NCBI RefSeq assembly: GCF_055900595.2
Contig: NZ_CM148325.1
Strand: one strand, 5' to 3'
Length of the DNA stretch: 64,000 nt
Shown here: positions 41,694 to 54,403 of the stretch, piece by piece
Layout: every line of letters begins with the position of its first letter
Numbering within the stretch: the first letter of the stretch is position 1
Notes under the pieces: model-generated
What the model saw: the letters and a program-made list of their open reading frames with translations, nothing else
Told to the model about the DNA's origin: nothing
Databases searched by the model: none
Made by a program: the position numbers and the translations under genes

Positions 41694-41714
41694 TCTCCCT
41701 TCTTTAATAATCAA

Positions 41715-41744
41715 CGGGCAAGTCACTGGCTTGCCCGTTTTTTT
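41715..41744 (+). terminator. serA rho-independent terminator
   Basis: cgggcaagtcactggcttgcccg followed by ttttttt. Confidence 0.75.
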
Positions 41745-41756
41745 GTGCACAGAAAA

Positions 41757-42460
41757 CCCCCAGCTAGGCTGGGGGTTCCGGAAAGCTTTCAGCTTTGAGC
41801 CAGTTATTAAAACCCCTTTTGATTTGTTAAAACACCTTGCGGTCTGGCAACTGCAAGTGTCAAACAAGAAATCAAAAGGGGGTCCCAATGGGGGACGAAA
41901 AGAGCTTAGCGCACACCCGCTGGAACTGTAAATATCACATAGTTTTTGCGCCGAAATACCGAAGACTGGCGTTTTACGGAGAGAAGCGTAGGGCGATAGG
42001 CAGTATTTTGAGAAAGCTGTGTGAGTGGAAAAGCGTACGGATTCTGGAAGCAGAGTGCTGCGCAGATCATATCCATATGCTTGTGGAAATCCCACCCAAA
42101 ATGAGCGTATCCGGCTTTATGGGATATCTGAAAGGGAAAAGCAGTCTGATGCTTTACGAGCAGTTTGGGGATTTGAAATTCAAATACAGAAACAGGGAGT
42201 TCTGGTGCCGAGGGTACTATGTCGATACGGTGGGTAAGAACACGGCGAAGATACAGGACTACATAAAGCACCAGCTTGAAGAGGATAAAATGGGGGAGCA
42301 GTTATCGATTCCATATCCGGGCAGCCCGTTTACGGGCCGTAAGTAACGAAGTTGAATGCAAATGTCAGATCGTATGCGCCTGTTAGGGCGCGGCTGGTAA
42401 CAGAGCCTTACAGGCGCATTTGAAAAACCTCCGGCTATGCCGGAGGATATTTATTATCCC
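41757..42460 (+). mobile_element. IS200-like (IS200/IS605 family) element; boundaries approximate to about 30 bp
   Basis: Left-end palindrome cccccagctaggctggggg, a stem-loop covering the tnpA RBS, a 152-aa Y1/HUH transposase, and right-end hairpins (cctccggctatgccggagg). No terminal inverted repeats, as expected for this family. Confidence 0.75.
41888..42346 (+). CDS. tnpA: IS200-type Y1 (HUH) transposase TnpA (152 aa)
   Basis: Track ORF trimmed to MGDEKSLAHTRWNCKYHIVFAPKYRR...; HUH motif HIHMLV and catalytic-Tyr region conserved. Confidence 0.92.
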   Translation: MGDEKSLAHTRWNCKYHIVFAPKYRRLAFYGEKRRAIGSILRKLCEWKSVRILEAECCADHIHMLVEIPPKMSVSGFMGYLKGKSSLMLYEQFGDLKFKYRNREFWCRGYYVDTVGKNTAKIQDYIKHQLEEDKMGEQLSIPYPGSPFTGRK

Positions 42461-47276: not shown

Positions 47277-48479
47277 ATGCAAAGTGTTGATGTAGCCATT
47301 GTTGGCGGCGGCATGGTGGGGCTGGCGGTTGCCTGCGGCTTGCAGGGCAGCGGCTTACGCGTTGCCGTACTGGAGCAGCGCGTACCGGAACCCCTGGCGG
47401 CGGATGCACCACCACAACTGCGCGTTTCGGCTATCAATGCCGCCAGCGAAAAATTACTCACCCGTCTTGGCGTCTGGCAGGACATTCTCTCTCGTAGGGC
47501 CAGTTGTTATCACGGTATGGAAGTGTGGGACAAAGACAGTTTTGGTCACATTTCGTTTGACGATCAAAGCATGGGCTATAGCCATCTTGGGCATATCGTT
47601 GAAAACTCAGTGATTCACTACGCGCTGTGGAACAAAGCGCAGCAGTCGTCAGATATCACTCTGTTGGCCCCCGCAGAATTACAGCAGGTCGCCTGGGGAG
47701 AAAATGAAACCTTCCTGACGCTGAAAGATGGCAGCATGTTAACGGCGCGTCTGGTAATTGGCGCAGACGGCGCTAATTCCTGGTTGCGCAACAAAGCCGA
47801 TATTCCGCTGACTTTCTGGGATTATCTGCATCACGCGCTGGTGGCGACCATTCGCACGGAAGAACCGCATGATGCGGTGGCGCGACAGGTTTTCCATGGC
47901 GAAGGCATTCTGGCCTTTTTGCCGCTTAGCGATCCGCATCTTTGCTCAATTGTCTGGTCACTGTCGCCAGAGGAAGCACAGCGGATGCAGCAGGCAGGCG
48001 AAGACGAATTTAACCGCGAGTTAAATATCGCTTTTGATAATCGCCTGGGCTTATGCAAGGTTGAGAGTGAACGCCTGGTGTTCCCGCTGACTGGGCGTTA
48101 TGCGCGCCAGTTTGCCGCGCACCGTCTGGCGCTGGTGGGCGACGCCGCGCATACCATTCACCCGTTGGCGGGGCAGGGGGTGAATCTCGGCTTTATGGAT
48201 GCTGCAGAGCTGATTGCTGAACTGAAACGGTTGCATCGTCAGGGTAAAGACATCGGGCAGTACATTTACCTGCGTCGCTATGAGCGTAGCCGCAAGCACA
48301 GTGCGGCGCTGATGCTGGCAGGTATGCAGGGATTCCGCGATCTGTTTTCCGGGGCTCATCCGGCGAAAAAACTGCTGCGTGATATTGGCCTGAAACTGGC
48401 CGACACGCTTCCTGGCGTTAAACCACAACTTATCCGCCAGGCAATGGGATTAAACGATTTGCCTGAATGGCTGCGTTAA
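47277..48479 (+). CDS. ubiI: 2-octaprenylphenol hydroxylase UbiI/VisC (400 aa)
   Basis: FAD-binding VAIVGGGMVGLAVA; paralogue directly downstream of ubiH. Confidence 0.92.
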   Translation: MQSVDVAIVGGGMVGLAVACGLQGSGLRVAVLEQRVPEPLAADAPPQLRVSAINAASEKLLTRLGVWQDILSRRASCYHGMEVWDKDSFGHISFDDQSMGYSHLGHIVENSVIHYALWNKAQQSSDITLLAPAELQQVAWGENETFLTLKDGSMLTARLVIGADGANSWLRNKADIPLTFWDYLHHALVATIRTEEPHDAVARQVFHGEGILAFLPLSDPHLCSIVWSLSPEEAQRMQQAGEDEFNRELNIAFDNRLGLCKVESERLVFPLTGRYARQFAAHRLALVGDAAHTIHPLAGQGVNLGFMDAAELIAELKRLHRQGKDIGQYIYLRRYERSRKHSAALMLAGMQGFRDLFSGAHPAKKLLRDIGLKLADTLPGVKPQLIRQAMGLNDLPEWLR

Positions 48480-48559
48480 AAATTTCTCCTCTGTTGTTTA
48501 TTTGATACCCATCACACTTTCATCTCCCGGTTTTTTCGCCGGGAGATTTTCCTCATTTG

Positions 48560-48926
48560 AAATAAACTAATTTCACCTCCGTTTTCGCATTATATTTTCT
48601 AATGTCACGAATTTTTGATTTAGTGTTTTTTGACATTTTTTCAGTTCTTAATATTGCCTTATTCAAATTAAGTTTCTCATCACATCATCTTTGTATAGAA
48701 AATGGAATGTTTTTTGGTTTTTTATTCTGTTGTTATTCTGGCGTTTTTTAACCATAAGCTAATGTGATGATCAATTTTACCTTATGGTTAACAGTCTGTT
48801 TCGGTGGTAAGTTCAGGGAAAAGAGAACGATTGCGTTGGGGACCGGGAGTGGCTCCGATGCTGGGTTTCGTGGTGATAATTTCGCCATGGAAAAGTTGTC
48901 AGCCCCGCTTATTCAATGAGGACAAG
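48560..48926 (+). promoter_or_regulatory. AT-rich gcvTHP upstream control region
   Basis: About 400 bp AT-rich spacer between the ubiI terminator hairpin (tctcccggttttttcgccgggaga) and gcvT; in E. coli this region holds the gcv promoter and its regulator-binding sites. Sites not individually mapped. Confidence 0.4.
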
Positions 48927-50021
48927 ATGGCACAACAGACTCCTTTGTACGAACAACACACGCTTTGCGGCGCTCGCATGGTGGATTTCCACGGCTGGAT
49001 GATGCCGCTGCATTACGGTTCGCAAATCGACGAACATCATGCGGTACGTACCGATGCCGGAATGTTTGATGTGTCACATATGACCATCGTCGATCTTCGC
49101 GGCAGTCGCACCCGGGAGTTTCTGCGTTATCTGCTGGCGAACGATGTGGCGAAGCTCACCAAAAGCGGCAAAGCCCTTTACTCGGGGATGTTGAATGCCT
49201 CTGGCGGTGTGATAGATGATCTCATCGTTTACTACTTTACTGAAGATTTCTTCCGCCTCGTTGTTAACTCCGCCACCCGCGAAAAAGACCTCTCCTGGAT
49301 TACCCAACACGCTGAACCCTTCGGTATCGAAATTACCGTTCGTGATGACCTTTCCATGATTGCCGTACAAGGGCCGAATGCGCAGGCAAAAGCTGCCACA
49401 CTGTTTAATGATGCTCAGCGTCAGGCGGTGGAAGGGATGAAACCCTTCTTTGGCGTGCAGGCGGGCGCTCTGTTTATTGCCACCACCGGTTATACCGGTG
49501 AAGTGGGCTACGAAATTGCGCTGCCCAATGAAAAAGCGGCGGATTTCTGGCGTGCGCTGGTGGAAGCGGGCGTTAAGCCCTGCGGTCTGGGCGCGCGTGA
49601 CACGCTGCGTCTGGAAGCGGGTATGAATCTTTATGGTCAGGAGATGGACGAAACCATTTCTCCTTTAGCAGCCAACATGGGCTGGACCATCGCGTGGGAA
49701 CCGGCTGATCGTGACTTTATCGGTCGTGAAGCTCTGGAAGCGCAGCGTGAACATGGCACAGAAAAACTGGTTGGTCTGGTGATGACCGAAAAAGGCGTGC
49801 TGCGTAATGAACTGCCGGTACGTTTTACCGATGCGCAGGGCAATCAGCATGAAGGCATTATCACCAGCGGTACTTTCTCCCCGACGTTGGGTTACAGCAT
49901 TGCGCTGGCACGCGTGCCGGAAGGTATTGGCGAAACGGCGATTGTGCAAATTCGCAACCGTGAAATGCCGGTAAAAGTGACGAAACCTGTTTTTGTGCGT
50001 AACGGCAAAGCCGTCGCGTGA
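48927..50021 (+). CDS. gcvT: glycine cleavage system T protein, aminomethyltransferase (364 aa)
   Basis: Track ORF trimmed 41 codons to [27 protein letters not shown]... Confidence 0.95.
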
Positions 50022-50044
50022 TTTACTTTTTTGGAGATTAATTG

Positions 50045-50434
50045 ATGAGCAACGTACCAGCAGAACTGAAATACAGCAAAGAACACGAATGGCTGCGTAA
50101 AGAAGCCGACGGCACTTACACTGTTGGCATCACTGAGCACGCTCAGGAGCTGTTAGGCGATATGGTGTTTGTTGACCTGCCGGAAGTGGGCGCAACGGTA
50201 AGCGCGGGCGATGACTGCGCGGTTGCCGAATCGGTAAAAGCGGCGTCAGACATTTATGCGCCAGTAAGCGGTGAAATCGTGGCGGTAAACGACGCACTGA
50301 GCGATTCTCCGGAACTGGTGAACAGCGAACCGTATGCAGGCGGCTGGATCTTCAAAATCAAAGCCAGCGATGAAAGCGAACTGGAATCACTGCTGGATGC
50401 GACCGCATACGAAGCATTGTTAGAAGACGAGTAA
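50045..50434 (+). CDS. gcvH: glycine cleavage system H protein (129 aa)
   Basis: [34 protein letters not shown]...; lipoyl-lysine region present. Confidence 0.95.
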
Positions 50435-50552
50435 CGGCTTTATTCCTCTTCTGCGGAAGAGGATTAGGGTGAGGAACATTTACGCCTCACCCTCACTCTC
50501 TTCGCAAGGAGAGAGGTTCACAATTCACTGCACGTTTCAGGAACCATCGCTC

Positions 50553-53426
50553 ATGACACAGACGTTAAGCCAGCTTGAAAACAGCGGCGCTTTTATTGAA
50601 CGCCATATCGGACCGGACGCCGCGCAACAGCAAGAAATGCTGAATGCCGTTGGCGCACAATCGTTAAACGCGCTGACCGGCCAGATTGTGCCGAAAGATA
50701 TTCAGCTTGCGATACCACCGCAGGTTGGCGCACCGGCGACCGAATACGCCGCGCTGGCGGAACTCAAGGCTATTGCCAGTCGCAATAAACGCTTCACGTC
50801 TTACATCGGCATGGGTTACACCGCCGTGCAGCTACCGCCGGTTATCCTGCGTAACATGCTGGAAAATCCGGGCTGGTATACCGCGTATACTCCGTATCAA
50901 CCTGAAGTCTCCCAGGGCCGCCTTGAAGCACTGCTCAACTTCCAGCAGGTAACGCTGGATTTGACCGGGCTGGATATGGCTTCGGCTTCTCTTCTTGACG
51001 AAGCCACTGCTGCTGCCGAAGCAATGGCGATGGCAAAACGCGTCAGTAAACTGAAAAATGCCAACCGCTTCTTCGTTGCTTCTGACGTGCATCCGCAAAC
51101 TTTAGATGTAGTACGTACACGCGCAGAAACCTTTGGTTTTGAAGTGATTGTCGATGATGCACAAAAAGTGCTCGATCACCAGGACGTCTTCGGCGTGCTG
51201 TTACAGCAGGTCGGCACTACCGGTGAAATTCACGACTACACTGCGCTTATCAGCGAACTGAAATCACGCAAAATTGTAGTCAGCGTCGCCGCCGATATTA
51301 TGGCGCTGGTGCTGTTAACTGCACCGGGTAAACAGGGCGCGGATATTGTCTTTGGTTCGGCGCAACGCTTTGGCGTACCGATGGGCTACGGTGGCCCACA
51401 TGCGGCATTCTTTGCAGCGAAAGATGAATACAAACGCTCAATGCCGGGCCGTATTATTGGCGTATCGAAAGATGCCGCGGGCAATACTGCGCTGCGCATG
51501 GCGATGCAGACTCGCGAGCAACATATTCGCCGTGAGAAAGCGAACTCCAACATTTGTACTTCCCAGGTACTGCTGGCTAACATCGCCAGCCTGTATGCCG
51601 TTTATCACGGTCCGGTTGGCCTGAAACGTATCGCTAACCGCATCCACCGTCTGACCGATATCCTGGCTGCAGGTCTGCAACAAAAAGGTCAGAAGCTGCG
51701 CCATGCGCACTATTTCGATACTTTGTGTGTGGAAGTGGCCGACAAAGCGGGCGTGCTGGCGCGTGCCGAAGCGGCTGAAATCAACCTGCGTAGCGATATT
51801 CTGAATGCGGTGGGGATCACCCTTGATGAAACCACCACGCGCGAAAACGTGATGCAGCTTTTCAGCGTACTGCTGGGCGATAATCACGGACTGGACATCG
51901 ACACGCTGGACAAAGACGTGGCTCACGACAGCCGTTCTATTCAGCCTGCAATGCTGCGCGATGACGAAATTCTCACCCATCCGGTGTTTAATCGCTACCA
52001 CAGCGAAACCGAAATGATGCGCTATATGCACTCGCTGGAGCGTAAAGATCTGGCGCTGAATCAGGCGATGATCCCGCTGGGTTCCTGCACCATGAAACTG
52101 AACGCCGCCGCCGAGATGATCCCAATCACCTGGCCGGAATTTGCCGAACTGCACCCGTTCTGCCCGCCGGAACAGGCCGAAGGTTATCAGCAGATGATCG
52201 CCCAACTGGCTGACTGGCTGGTGAAACTGACCGGTTACGACGCCGTCTGTATGCAGCCGAACTCTGGCGCTCAGGGCGAATACGCGGGGCTGCTGGCGAT
52301 TCGTCATTATCATGAAAGCCGCAACGAAGGGCATCGCGATATCTGCCTGATCCCGGCTTCTGCGCATGGCACTAACCCGGCTTCCGCGCATATGGCAGGA
52401 ATGCAGGTGGTGGTTGTGGCGTGTGATAAAAACGGCAACATCGATCTGACTGACCTGCGCGCGAAAGCGGAGCAGGCGGGCGATAATCTCTCCTGCATTA
52501 TGGTGACCTATCCTTCCACCCACGGCGTGTACGAAGAAACGATCCGTGAAGTGTGTGAAATCGTGCATAAGTTCGGCGGTCAGGTTTACCTTGATGGCGC
52601 GAACATGAACGCCCAGGTTGGCATCACTTCGCCGGGCTTTATTGGCGCGGACGTTTCGCACCTTAACCTGCATAAAACTTTCTGCATTCCGCACGGCGGT
52701 GGTGGTCCGGGTATGGGACCGATCGGCGTGAAAGCGCATTTGGCACCGTTTGTTCCGGGTCATAGCGTGGTGCAAATCGAAGGCATGTTAACCCGTCAGG
52801 GCGCGGTTTCTGCGGCACCGTTCGGTAGCGCTTCTATTCTGCCAATTAGCTGGATGTACATCCGCATGATGGGCGCAGAAGGGCTGAAAAAAGCAAGCCA
52901 GGTGGCAATCCTCAACGCCAACTATATTGCCAGCCGCCTGCAGGATGCTTTCCCGGTGCTGTATACCGGTCGCGACGGTCGCGTGGCGCATGAATGTATT
53001 CTTGATATTCGTCCGTTGAAAGAAGAAACCGGCATCAGCGAGCTGGATATTGCCAAGCGCCTGATCGACTATGGTTTCCACGCGCCGACTATGTCGTTCC
53101 CGGTGGCGGGGACGCTGATGGTTGAACCGACTGAATCTGAAAGCAAAGTGGAACTGGATCGCTTTATTGATGCGATGCTGTCTATCCGCGCAGAAATCGA
53201 CCAGGTGAAAGCCGGTGTTTGGCCGCTGGAAGATAACCCGCTGGTGAACGCGCCGCACATTCAGAGCGAACTGGTCGCCGAGTGGGCGCATCCGTACAGC
53301 CGTGAAGTTGCAGTATTCCCGGCAGGCGTGGCAGACAAATACTGGCCAACAGTGAAACGTCTGGATGATGTTTACGGCGACCGTAACCTGTTCTGCTCCT
53401 GCGTACCGATTAGCGAATACCAGTAA
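50553..53426 (+). CDS. gcvP: glycine dehydrogenase (decarboxylating), P protein (957 aa)
   Basis: Track ORF trimmed 28 codons to [22 protein letters not shown]... Confidence 0.96.
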
Positions 53427-53448
53427 TTTACTGATTCGACTATCTTCT

Positions 53449-53468
53449 AAAGGCGCTTCGGCGCCTTT
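53449..53468 (+). other. hairpin aaaggcgcttcggcgccttt, first copy, no T-run
   Basis: Perfect GC-rich stem 20 nt after the gcvP stop; identical stem repeated at 53622-53641. Confidence 0.5.
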
Positions 53469-53487
53469 GACACTGATGTCAAACTCA

Positions 53488-53598
53488 ACATTGCCTGATG
53501 CACCTCGTTTATCAGGCCTACATAGTCTGTGCAATGTATTGAATTTGCACGATCTTGTAGGCTGGATAAGGCGTTCACGCCGCATCCGGCATAATAAA
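53488..53598. repeat. REP/BIME units
   Basis: gcctgatgcacctcgtttatcaggcctaca and inverted gtaggctggataaggcgttcacgccgcatccggc. Confidence 0.75.
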
Positions 53599-53621
53599 AG
53601 CACTTTGTCATCAATAATTTG

Positions 53622-53649
53622 AAAGGCGCTTCGGCGCCTTTATTTTTTT
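53622..53649 (+). terminator. rho-independent terminator, second copy of the hairpin with T-run
   Basis: aaaggcgcttcggcgccttt followed by attttttt. Confidence 0.65.
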
Positions 53650-53659
53650 AGGAAAACAA

Positions 53660-54403
53660 ATGACTATAGCACTTGTGACCGGTGGCAGTCGCGGCATCGG
53701 GCGGGCAACTGCATTACTGTTGGCGCAAGAAGGGTATACGGTGGCGGTTAATTATCAGCAAAACCTCCACGCGGCGCAGGAAGTGGTGAAGTTAATCACG
53801 CAAGCCGGTGGCAAGGCATTCGTGCTTCAGGCGGATATCAGCGACGAAAATCAGGTCATCGCAATGTTTACAGCAATCGATCAGCACGATGAACCGCTAG
53901 CCGCGCTGGTCAATAACGCCGGGATCTTGTTTACCCAGTGCACCGTAGAAAACCTTACCGCAGAGCGAATCAACCGGGTACTTTCCACCAATGTGACGGG
54001 ATATTTTCTCTGTTGCCGCGAGGCGGTAAAACGCATGGCGCTTAAAAATGGCGGTAATGGCGGTGCTATCGTCAACGTCTCGTCAGTGGCCTCACGGCTG
54101 GGATCGCCGGGAGAATACGTTGACTATGCGGCATCGAAAGGGGCGATTGATACGTTAACCACCGGACTATCGCTGGAAGTCGCCGCGCAGGGGATCCGCG
54201 TTAACGGCGTGCGGCCAGGGTTTATTTATACCGAAATGCACGCCAGCGGTGGCGAGCCTGGACGCGTTGATCGCGTTAAGTCGAACATCCCCATGCAGCG
54301 TGGCGGACAGGCGGAAGAGGTCGCGCAGGCCATCGTCTGGCTGTTAAGTGATAAAGCCTCTTATGTTACGGGAAGTTTTATCGATTTGGCGGGCGGGAAA
54401 TAA
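53660..54403 (+). CDS. ygfF: short-chain dehydrogenase/reductase YgfF (247 aa)
   Basis: TGGSRGIG cofactor-binding motif at the N-terminus; full length. Confidence 0.88.
   Translation: MTIALVTGGSRGIGRATALLLAQEGYTVAVNYQQNLHAAQEVVKLITQAGGKAFVLQADISDENQVIAMFTAIDQHDEPLAALVNNAGILFTQCTVENLTAERINRVLSTNVTGYFLCCREAVKRMALKNGGNGGAIVNVSSVASRLGSPGEYVDYAASKGAIDTLTTGLSLEVAAQGIRVNGVRPGFIYTEMHASGGEPGRVDRVKSNIPMQRGGQAEEVAQAIVWLLSDKASYVTGSFIDLAGGK

Follow-up and report, generated by a model that had tools for sequence, protein, structure and literature searches.

The short dispersed repeats of Escherichia coli that go by the name of BoxC are said to have been named by Bachellier and Hofnung, and PIT elements were reportedly described by Hoyne and Maher in 2000. 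To our knowledge, the BoxC/PIT/TMECO repeats have gone ∼30 years without an assigned function.

BoxC, the PIT elements of the Maher laboratory and TMECO are one and the same family (Holder et al. 2015, PMC4666352). The MG1655 genome holds 23 TMECO copies, with inverted pairs at five sites, and the repeat is absent from Salmonella while being very abundant in some Enterobacter (PMC4666352). Its single strand forms an intrastrand triplex in vitro, a structure that in-vivo footprinting did not support; neither promoter nor terminator activity was detected, and no function was assigned (PMC4666352). Canonical TMECO sites are unchanged in just 38% of strain comparisons, and local variability is raised around them (PMC4666352). 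According to the Maher laboratory work, as it is cited in PMC4666352, PIT/BoxC has no terminator activity and leaves RNA polymerase unaffected.

The second point of departure is the REP element, for which the paradigm is malE-malF (Newbury et al. 1987; Khemici and Carpousis 2004; both as cited in Dar and Sorek 2018). In the description of Dar and Sorek (2018), precise RNA ends that lie past stable stem-loops devoid of a U-tract result from trimming by PNPase and RNase II down to the protective structure, and REP elements are placed in this class of trimmed stem-loops.

Both the BoxC family and the mechanism by which REP and other stem-loops stabilise RNA are therefore already known. What appears to be unreported is the presence of a degenerate BoxC pair between gcvH and gcvP, along with two further points: that this pair marks the dominant 3' end of the operon, and that canonical BoxC copies share this signature. 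A literature search on the gcvH-gcvP spacer found nothing. The data below concern this spacer as it occurs in a 64-kb stretch of E. coli DNA, all of which was analysed and which is called here the window, together with its counterparts in E. coli K-12 and in other species.

The gcvH-gcvP spacer and its three hairpins

A first-pass annotation of the window had listed three inverted repeats in the 118-nt spacer, and all three are present with the sequences given there (Table 1). Some details change: the middle loop counts 10 nt and not 11, and the spacer, described as "intracistronic", is intercistronic. The same annotation missed the palindromic nature of the cluster and its membership in a dispersed repeat family.

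Table 1. Features of the gcv operon and of the hairpin element, in window coordinates
Feature	Position	Strand	Description
gcvT	48927..50021	+	ORF; 364 aa, 40.1 kDa; first gene of gcvTHP; aligns with K-12 gcvT
gcvH	50045..50434	+	129 aa; stop TAA 50432-50434
gcvH-gcvP intercistronic spacer	50435..50552	+	118 nt, from gcvH stop to gcvP ATG
Left BoxC/TMECO-like unit	50444..50474	-	reads CCTCACCCTAATCCTCTTCCGCAGAAGAGGA on the minus strand
Hairpin 1	50444..50463	+	8 bp, loop UGCG, -11.3 kcal/mol; tcctcttc/tgcg/gaagagga; from left BoxC-like unit
Hairpin 2	50466..50493	+	9 bp, 10-nt loop aacatttacg, -15.6 kcal/mol; agggtgagg/cctcaccct
Right BoxC/TMECO-like unit	50485..50516	+	CCTCACCCT-CA-CTCTCTTC-GCAA-GGAGAGAGG
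Hairpin 3	50496..50515	+	8 bp including one U.G pair, loop GCAA, -12.2 kcal/mol; ctctcttc/gcaa/ggagagag
Dominant K-12 3' end	50497 (K-12 3049097, minus strand)	+	Term-seq; 4 nt past last hairpin 2 pair
gcvP translation-initiation region	50523..50552	+	ATTCACTGCACGTTTCAGGAACCATCGCTC; AGGAA ~8 nt upstream of ATG
gcvP	50553..53426	+	957 aa; ATG at 50553

RNA folding, which had been proposed as a check, returns the same picture. When positions 50425-50565 are folded with RNAfold, the structure of minimum free energy (MFE) consists of exactly hairpins 1, 2 and 3, with an energy of -47.9 kcal/mol against -33.1 +/- 3.7 for 200 dinucleotide shuffles (z = -4.0), none of which is as stable (0/200). The pattern AGGGTGAGG-N4-20-CCTCACCCT has one match in the 64-kb window where 0 are expected. 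Taken together, the hairpins make one imperfect palindrome, whose 29-nt arms (50446-74 and 50485-513) are 76% complementary; consequently, hairpins 1 and 3 can pair arm to arm in one long nested hairpin, an alternative that is near-isoenergetic. This nested fold is the MFE structure in the E. coli variants L087 and L113 and in all of the canonical Enterobacter elements, where the duplex is of about 30 bp.

With regard to the surroundings of the hairpins, the initiation region of gcvP is near-invariant in the spacers of Escherichia, Citrobacter, Enterobacter, Lelliottia and Kluyvera, and everything upstream of it has been replaced. A small ORF, or an upstream gcvP start at the in-frame GTG 50469, was considered and rejected because the conserved AGGAA-ATG region and the 957-aa product match K-12. 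A promoter scan gave no plus-strand site in the gcvH-gcvP spacer.

Within E. coli the spacer is almost universal: by blastn, 5425 of 5426 complete genomes carry it at an identity of at least 90% and in a single copy. The same search against the 5,426 genomes found the orthologous copy only, at one place per genome; the gcv copy has diverged so far that blastn does not connect it with other copies, so that similarity search alone would call the spacer unique. The window and K-12 spacers align without gaps, and all 5 differences fall inside the hairpin element. In one E. coli strain, the spacer has been expanded by inverted duplication to five hairpins.

Relationship to the BoxC repeats

The element resembled a dispersed enterobacterial repeat, and the first lead to its identity was a 34-nt repeat consensus, which was then tested against published copies. 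In an E. coli genome this consensus matches intergenic DNA at a median of 18 places, the family being a dispersed one; three of the four consensus-match regions examined turned out to be the same ugpB-ugpA locus.

The assignment itself comes from two kinds of models. A BoxC profile HMM was built from the 22 E. coli BoxC sequences of Petrillo et al. 2008 (supplementary file 69, PMC2267715) and run with nhmmer, without filters, on both strands of the window (128 kb searched). The best match runs from 50474 to 50455 on the minus strand (E = 0.0075; the profile reads CCCCTCACCC-TAA-CCCTCTCCCC-loop-GGGGCGAGGGG), and the second covers 50481-50516 on the plus strand (E = 0.054), with the next ones at E = 30 and 55. 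Each of these two matches is weak singly, but they are adjacent, inverted and the sole ones with E < 1. The other model, the covariance model R1, was made from the canonical gcvH-gcvP elements of Enterobacter and Pseudocitrobacter alone, with no Escherichia sequence included; its whole length aligns to 50442-50517, with a score of 44.9 bits (E ~1e-7), and the runner-up in the 64 kb scores 13.8 bits. It is the two weak nhmmer matches together with the R1 match that carry the BoxC assignment.

The relationship to the family is thus directly observed, and it accounts for the geometry as well: two opposed units, each with its own hairpin, the left with hairpin 1 and the right with hairpin 3, face each other with their heads across a short loop, and hairpin 2 is the pairing of the two CCTCACCCT heads. 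Judged by sequence, the three hairpins are best described as a degenerate head-to-head pair of BoxC repeat units. The same head-to-head architecture is found in K-12 TMECO 10 and 11, just downstream of gcvP.

How degenerate the pair is can be read from the definitions that it escapes. The strict TMECO pattern, CCCTCNCCC N3-6 GGGNGAGGG N3 GGGNGAGGG, is matched nowhere in the 64 kb, against twice in K-12, past the end of gcvP, and once or twice in the gcvH-gcvP spacers of Enterobacter. The definition of the family tolerates a single mismatched triplet in the intrastrand triplex; a simple count of purine-motif pairing, which is not a thermodynamic measure, gives 6/9 triplets for the left unit (7/9 in K-12) and 6/8 for the right unit, with 9/9 for the consensus. 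Nor does the rule that couples a type A unit (second loop TTA) to a type B unit (CCG) hold: in the window the second loops are TTA on the left and TGA on the right (minus strand), in the K-12 gcv element they are TCA and TGA, and the Enterobacter elements at gcvH-gcvP have CAG or CCG together with TTA. The gcv copy is also absent from the published sets, namely the 22 BoxC copies (PMC2267715) and the 23 MG1655 TMECOs, for which Table 1 of PMC4666352 has no entry near 3,049,1xx.

Other families were searched for as well. A scan of positions 48000-54000 with Rfam 15, at E up to 10, gave no match in the spacer (50435-50552); the REP-derived families ES036 and naRNA4 match 53514-53601, downstream of gcvP. 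The REP core (GCCGGATG...CATCCGGC / GTAGGCC) is absent from the gcvH-gcvP spacer.

The same spacer in other lineages

Spacers from other species were extracted by way of GcvH relatives (80 species representatives, identity 71-98%) and of a 24-nt motif at the gcvP start (120 metagenome contigs). Canonical BoxC/TMECO pairs occur between gcvH and gcvP in Enterobacter cloacae, E. asburiae, Pseudocitrobacter, Buttiauxella, Siccibacter and further lineages; they start 8-10 nt past the gcvH stop, ahead of a conserved ATTCACTGCACGTTTCAGGAACC, and some are strict TMECO pairs. The same place is occupied by REP/BIME in Citrobacter, Lelliottia and Kluyvera, and by ERIC, either full-length or internally deleted, in several Citrobacter, in a Klebsiella-like group and in Serratia. 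In Cedecea, Phytobacter and some Enterobacter, one CCCTCTCCC hairpin is found by itself, as if a pair had collapsed by recombination between hairpins 1 and 3.

In Photorhabdus, Providencia, Serratia, Yersinia, Dickeya, Pectobacterium, Pantoea, Shewanella and Idiomarina, the spacer has a GC-rich hairpin followed by a T-run; the count of such terminator-like spacers follows our own criteria, and the terminator scan missed the hairpin of Yersinia nurmii, whose loop is longer than 8 nt. Spacers that are both short (8-23 nt) and unstructured occur in Erwinia and Rosenbergiella only. When the 75 spacers from other species that reach at least 40 nt are folded, the median z is -2.7, and 52 of them fall below -2.

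Exchange of occupants is not limited to this spacer. Within E. coli, some strains carry a BoxC pair at ugpB-ugpA, a place where K-12 has a REP-like sequence. Likewise, downstream of gcvP, K-12 has the TMECO pair and the window strain has REPs; in the window, a copy of the gcvP terminator hairpin stands on either side of the REP block. This last arrangement is expected if such repeats insert into hairpins.

Maintenance of the structure

Is the structure kept, or is it only a remnant? Pairs were counted on a covariance-model alignment (A6), which is fitted to the structure and mixes both strands, so the sense rows were recounted separately; MAFFT alignments, in which the CT/GA runs of the elements fell out of register, were excluded from the counts. 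In A6, 94.5% of the cells are paired, against 57-70% when the partners are slid by 1-3 columns; 22 of the 28 pairs have changed on both sides, and 0/500 shuffles reach the observed values. The 30 distinct sense-strand rows are paired at 95.4%, with both-side changes at 16 of the 28 pairs, part of these changes being register differences among element subtypes. All these counts refer to related sequences rather than to independent events, and lineages may hold independently inserted family members instead of in-place compensation. Compensatory changes are clear in hairpin 2, where U-A becomes C-G in elements L107 and L037, and G-C becomes A-U in L103, L175 and L179.

The variation inside E. coli was examined on six distinct rows, these being the window, K-12 and four other variants among 42 metagenomic copies. 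Seven columns vary: one in a stem, six among the 22 unpaired positions of the element, and none in the 46 flank positions. On these six rows, again of related sequences, Fisher's test gives p = 0.003 for stems versus loops and p = 0.0007 for loops versus flanks. One of the variable places is the loop of hairpin 3, which is GCAA or GUAA depending on the strain. The sole variable stem position is 50457, where the window has an A, giving U-A, and K-12, like most E. coli, has a G, giving U.G; the U.G form lies between the canonical C-G pair and U-A. Because the wobble pairs function on the sense strand only, the antisense is the less stable of the two RNAs: in every E. coli variant the sense form exceeds it in stability by 5-8.6 kcal/mol, and over all elements the sense strand has the advantage in 24 of 30.

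The conservation of the stems, the strand bias and the near-fixation in E. coli favour the maintenance of the hairpins in the sense RNA. That selection keeps the element for an effect on expression is a step further, one which we regard as possible although we would not count on it.

An RNA 3' end past the second hairpin

The most informative data on the RNA come from the curated list of dominant Term-seq 3' ends of MG1655 (Adams et al. 2021, supplementary file 1, PMC7815308). The list contains an end at 3049097(-), in all three growth conditions and in the class "orphan", with a flanking sequence that is that of the gcv spacer and with read scores given as two values, 412,219 and 171,112 (PMC7815308). 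It was transferred to the window by means of the gapless alignment, in which the gcvP start, 3049041 in K-12, corresponds to 50553. The mapped end is a direct observation, and it bears out the suggestion of the first-pass annotation that the structures could be a processing or stabilising site, at least in the sense that processed ends exist.

For the 3' end at the gcvP terminator, 3046123, the list has an entry in a single condition, with a score of 36,065 (PMC7815308). The spacer end scores 11 times as much, with Term-seq scores not being calibrated abundances. As Adams et al. keep the strongest peak per 100 bp, ends past hairpins 1 and 3 may be hidden. Their text mentions neither gcv nor BoxC; their Rho table has no gcvH or gcvP entry, and an end internal to gcvP was scored as not Rho-dependent (PMC7815308). 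The supplements of SMRT-Cappable-seq have no gcv entries.

Six canonical BoxC/TMECO copies also have dominant 3' ends, at 164636+, 632098+, 847200-, 3781065+, 3959467- and 4231270-, and five of these six sit 3-4 nt beyond the hairpin of the unit. Two of the six coincide with TMECO 17 and 20, and 164636 coincides with TMECO 2 (Holder Table 1). With six canonical copies showing like ends, the gcv end becomes one instance of a signature of the whole family.

Protein output of the operon

The first-pass annotation had also suggested that the structures set the ratio of the H to the P protein. Proteome fractions are available in Dataset EV9 of Mori et al. 2021, and in its first seven conditions they are ~3.6-4.6e-4 for GcvH, ~6.2-6.4e-4 for GcvP and ~2.6-2.9e-4 for GcvT. 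After division by the molecular weights computed from the window, the molar ratio GcvH:GcvP is 4.2-5.6, and GcvT:GcvP is 1.05-1.18.

GcvH does exceed GcvP, some 4 to 6 times. That the structures set this ratio is doubtful: gcvT lies with gcvH on the same segment upstream of the hairpins, and with T:P at ~1.1 the excess of GcvH cannot be due to a step in mRNA level between TH and P alone. The roughly fivefold excess must be largely translational, and the ratio of ~1.1 argues against a large effect of the element on protein output.

What the hairpins may do

What, then, produces the end at 50497? The absence of a T-run, the lack of terminator activity reported for PIT and the precedent of Dar and Sorek together make an exonuclease barrier the best reading. 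We consider it somewhat probable that the hairpins act, by analogy with REP, as a barrier to 3' exonucleases, thereby forming the precise steady-state RNA 3' end past hairpin 2. After transcription of the operon, RNA extending into gcvP, produced by decay cuts or by diffuse downstream termination, would be trimmed by 3'-to-5' exonucleases (PNPase, RNase II) until these stall at the hairpins; the stem-loops would in this way set a precise and abundant steady-state end 4 nt past hairpin 2, and the upstream gcvT-gcvH segment, or fragments of it, would outlast the RNA of gcvP. We infer blockage rather than termination as the origin of the end, and any consequence for protein output would be a further inference of the same kind. 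Two caveats accompany the exonuclease barrier. An enzyme moving in from the gcvP side would run into hairpin 3 before hairpin 2, and yet it is after hairpin 2 that the end is reported; moreover, the end could belong to short decay fragments and not to a translatable gcvTH mRNA.

The most serious competitor is that the element is a neutral passenger: a selfish or mobile palindromic repeat, decayed in a transcribed spacer that tolerates it, and perhaps one that had targeted an older hairpin. It would stall exonucleases no more specifically than other stable stem-loops do, with the 3' ends being resistant decay debris and no selected effect on gcv expression. The turnover of occupants between and within genera (BoxC pair, REP/BIME, ERIC, single hairpin) is also what neutral hairpin-seeking mobile repeats would produce, and the polymorphism of other BoxC sites within E. 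coli (ugpB-ugpA, downstream of gcvP), the REP block set between two copies of the terminator hairpin, the GcvT:GcvP ratio with its lack of any sign of discoordinate output and the failure of published work to assign the family a function (PMC4666352) all agree with a passenger. Against a passenger speak its presence in 5425 of 5426 E. coli genomes, where canonical TMECO sites are unchanged in just 38% of strain comparisons, and the keeping of its stems while loops and linkers vary (p = 0.003). Also at odds with it are the coexistence of U-A and U.G variants at one pair, the greater stability of the sense RNA, and the finding that most of the 75 other species have a stable structure after gcvH, which in distant taxa includes terminator-like hairpins. 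On balance, neutrality is unlikely, though it deserves to be kept in mind.

The first-pass annotation had named a partial terminator as another candidate. Here RNA polymerase would stop in the spacer, through a non-canonical cluster of hairpins or through Rho acting on the untranslated spacer. The strength and precision of the 3' end fit such an attenuator, and so do the spacers with a hairpin and a T-run in Photorhabdus, Serratia, Yersinia, Dickeya, Pantoea, Providencia and Shewanella. One paper reportedly proposes termination by clusters of hairpins, which counts for the same side. BIMEs, in turn, have been linked to transcription attenuation (Espeli 2001, as cited in Dar and Sorek 2018). 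Against this, the E. coli spacer has no T-run: the terminator scan of the plus strand over 49900-50900 gave none, the tails of the three hairpins being TTAGGG, CACTCT and GTTCAC, and the end lies 4 nt past a stem instead of in a U-tract. In the work cited in PMC4666352, PIT/BoxC neither showed terminator activity nor affected RNA polymerase, and no Rho region is recorded for gcvH/gcvP, the nearby end internal to gcvP not being Rho-dependent (PMC7815308). We find this origin of the end improbable, and the proposal of the annotation is not supported.

Similarly poor are the prospects of an endonucleolytic cut, made by RNase III on the nested hairpin or by RNase E in the CACU/CUC linker, which would leave a gcvTH RNA with two hairpins at its 3' end and a gcvP RNA with hairpin 3 at its start. 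It would explain why the end is found between hairpins 2 and 3 and not past hairpin 3; in addition, the 5' hairpin would protect the downstream gcvP RNA, and the nested fold that RNase III would need is near-isoenergetic in E. coli, and the MFE structure in L087, L113 and the canonical Enterobacter elements. But if RNase III cut both arms of the nested duplex, the gcvTH RNA would end within hairpin 1 instead of at 50497; RNase E favours AU-rich single strands, and the linker is not of that kind; and single canonical BoxC units, which are incapable of a nested duplex, show the same +3/+4 ends.

Finally, non-B DNA (an intrastrand triplex or a cruciform) acting on replication, recombination or supercoiling might be invoked from the stable in vitro triplexes of canonical TMECO oligonucleotides and the raised variability of their loci (PMC4666352), and from the inverted-duplication expansion to five hairpins in one E. 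coli strain, but it is very improbable here, where triplex complementarity is degraded (6 of 8-9 triplets versus 9/9) while the Watson-Crick stems are kept, G.U pairs work in the sense RNA alone, and in-vivo footprinting gave no support for a triplex even in canonical copies (PMC4666352).

Implications

Three hairpins that had no explanation now have a specific identity, that of a decayed inverted BoxC pair, and this identity is tied to an RNA phenotype that can be measured. The exonuclease barrier makes a direct prediction, namely a stable gcvTH RNA species ending in the spacer. If BoxC hairpins generally cap 3' ends, the consequences are wider: an orphan family would gain a role open to testing, and part of the "orphan" ends in the Term-seq data of E. 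coli would be explained.

A broader proposal can be put forward, tentatively and in the knowledge that it may well fail: that BoxC/PIT/TMECO is a second family of 3'-end stabiliser hairpins in the Enterobacteriaceae, beside REP, and that gcvH-gcvP is a selected "structured-RNA slot". The occupant of such a slot would have been swapped repeatedly, from the terminator-like hairpin of distant Enterobacterales to the REP, ERIC or BoxC pair of the Enterobacteriaceae, while the need for a stable stem-loop behind gcvH would have remained all along.

Comparison with known systems

How does the gcv element compare with the described systems? Like an intrinsic terminator, it offers a GC-containing hairpin right after a stop codon; unlike one, it has no T-run at any of its three hairpins, and its mapped end falls 4 nt past the stem. 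It also has features in common with the stem-loops of Dar and Sorek, which cap Rho-dependent transcripts: the stem is stable, the uridine tract is missing and a precise end lies directly downstream. The difference is that the gcv element is located inside an operon, before a translated gene, and has no recorded Rho dependence.

With canonical BoxC/PIT/TMECO the element shares the order of the blocks, that is, a CCTCACCC head, a linker of 2-3 nt (TTA in the left unit of the window) and a CT-rich/GA-rich hairpin; it also shares the arrangement as an inverted pair, seen at five MG1655 sites, and an intergenic, transcribed location. It departs from them in its AT-richer stems (TCCTCTTC, CTCTCTTC), in the loss of triplex complementarity and in being nearly fixed in E. 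coli, where the canonical sites vary among strains.

The last comparison is with the REP/BIME stabilisers of the malE-malF paradigm. The sequence family is another one, without the GCCGGATG/GTAGGCC core, and the stabilising effect, which is established for REP, is putative for BoxC. Yet in both cases the elements are dispersed palindromes, placed between cistrons and free of a U-tract, with RNA 3' ends at their base; and the two families occupy the same sites interchangeably, at gcvH-gcvP across genera and at ugpB-ugpA and downstream of gcvP within E. coli.

Variation of the element within and beyond E. coli

Within E. coli, polymorphism in the degenerate head-to-head BoxC pair between gcvH and gcvP clusters in the loops and the linker of the element (window 50465, 50477, 50483 and 50505, and the same columns in spacer variants L086, L087, L113 and L169) and is largely C/T, and the 46 flanking spacer positions show no variation. 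The loops may be mutational hot spots, and deamination of exposed single-stranded cytosines may serve as an example of a cause.

The spacer of E. coli VTB96775v (L206 228-397) has 170 nt and five hairpins, in the order H1, H2, inverted H3, a second H2, and H3; here the element has been expanded by inverted duplication. Some spacers of 55-72 nt hold a single CCCTCTCCC/GGGAGAGGG hairpin (metagenome contigs L121, L129 and L162; loci L024, L025, L027 and L042). These look like BoxC pairs collapsed through recombination between H1 and H3, the first and third hairpins of the element, where a single palindrome is repeated in direct orientation.

Sequences along the gcv operon

The 30 nt preceding the gcvP ATG (window 50523-50552, ATTCACTGCACGTTTCAGGAACCATCGCTC) are nearly unchanged across Escherichia, Citrobacter, Enterobacter, Kluyvera and Lelliottia, and all the sequence upstream is replaced. 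This conservation exceeds the need of a Shine-Dalgarno sequence alone, which makes the segment a possible regulatory or sRNA target site.

At the other end of the operon, Term-seq of K-12 MG1655 places a strong RNA 3' end 65 nt inside gcvT (window 48992 = K-12 3050602, minus strand; scores 105,625 and 81,687), scored as not Rho-dependent, and another in the gcvT leader (window 48871 = K-12 3050723, minus strand; score 80,101) (Adams et al., PMC7815308). Together they suggest premature 3'-end formation at the operon start.

Another point of difference between strains is the gcvP-ygfF intergenic region (window 53427-53660 versus K-12 3045902-3046167, L001 3903-4168). In K-12, the gcvP terminator is followed by a canonical head-to-head TMECO (BoxC) pair, numbers 10 and 11, whereas the window strain has REP elements in its place (Rfam ES036 and naRNA4 matches, 53514-53601). 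These REP elements lie between two copies of the terminator hairpin aaaggcgcttcggcgccttt, as if the repeat block had been inserted into the terminator, duplicating it.

Elsewhere in the window, the three-hairpin covariance model gave two weak matches, probably ordinary terminators rather than BoxC; the higher-scoring one includes back-to-back GC hairpins with a T-run.

Terminator hairpins and weak model matches in the window
Feature	Window position	Remarks
Terminator hairpin aaaggcgcttcggcgccttt, copy 1	~53450-53469	One side of REP elements
Terminator hairpin aaaggcgcttcggcgccttt, copy 2	~53624-53644	Other side of REP elements
Weak three-hairpin-model match	41711-41778	13.8 bits, E about 0.2-0.4
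Weak three-hairpin-model match	42373-42449	12.9 bits, E about 0.2-0.4

Other repeats and other spacers

In a Klebsiella-like group, made up of L090 and 14 related metagenome loci with a GcvH C-terminus that shares 75% identity with that of E. coli, the gcvH-gcvP spacer has 206 nt and carries ERIC plus one REP. In two members the ERIC has an internal deletion and the spacer has 145 nt, so that ERIC occurs at this one locus in both a long and a short form.

A further intra-operon spacer with a BoxC pair separates the binding-protein and permease genes ugpB and ugpA (E. coli CFSAN061763, L002 267-441). K-12 has REP-like sequence at this position (K-12 3590983), so that BoxC and REP alternate at one site within E. 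coli; a Term-seq 3' end lies downstream of ugpB in K-12. The heads of the ugpB-ugpA pair point outward, ~70 nt apart, an arrangement opposite to that of the gcvH-gcvP pair.
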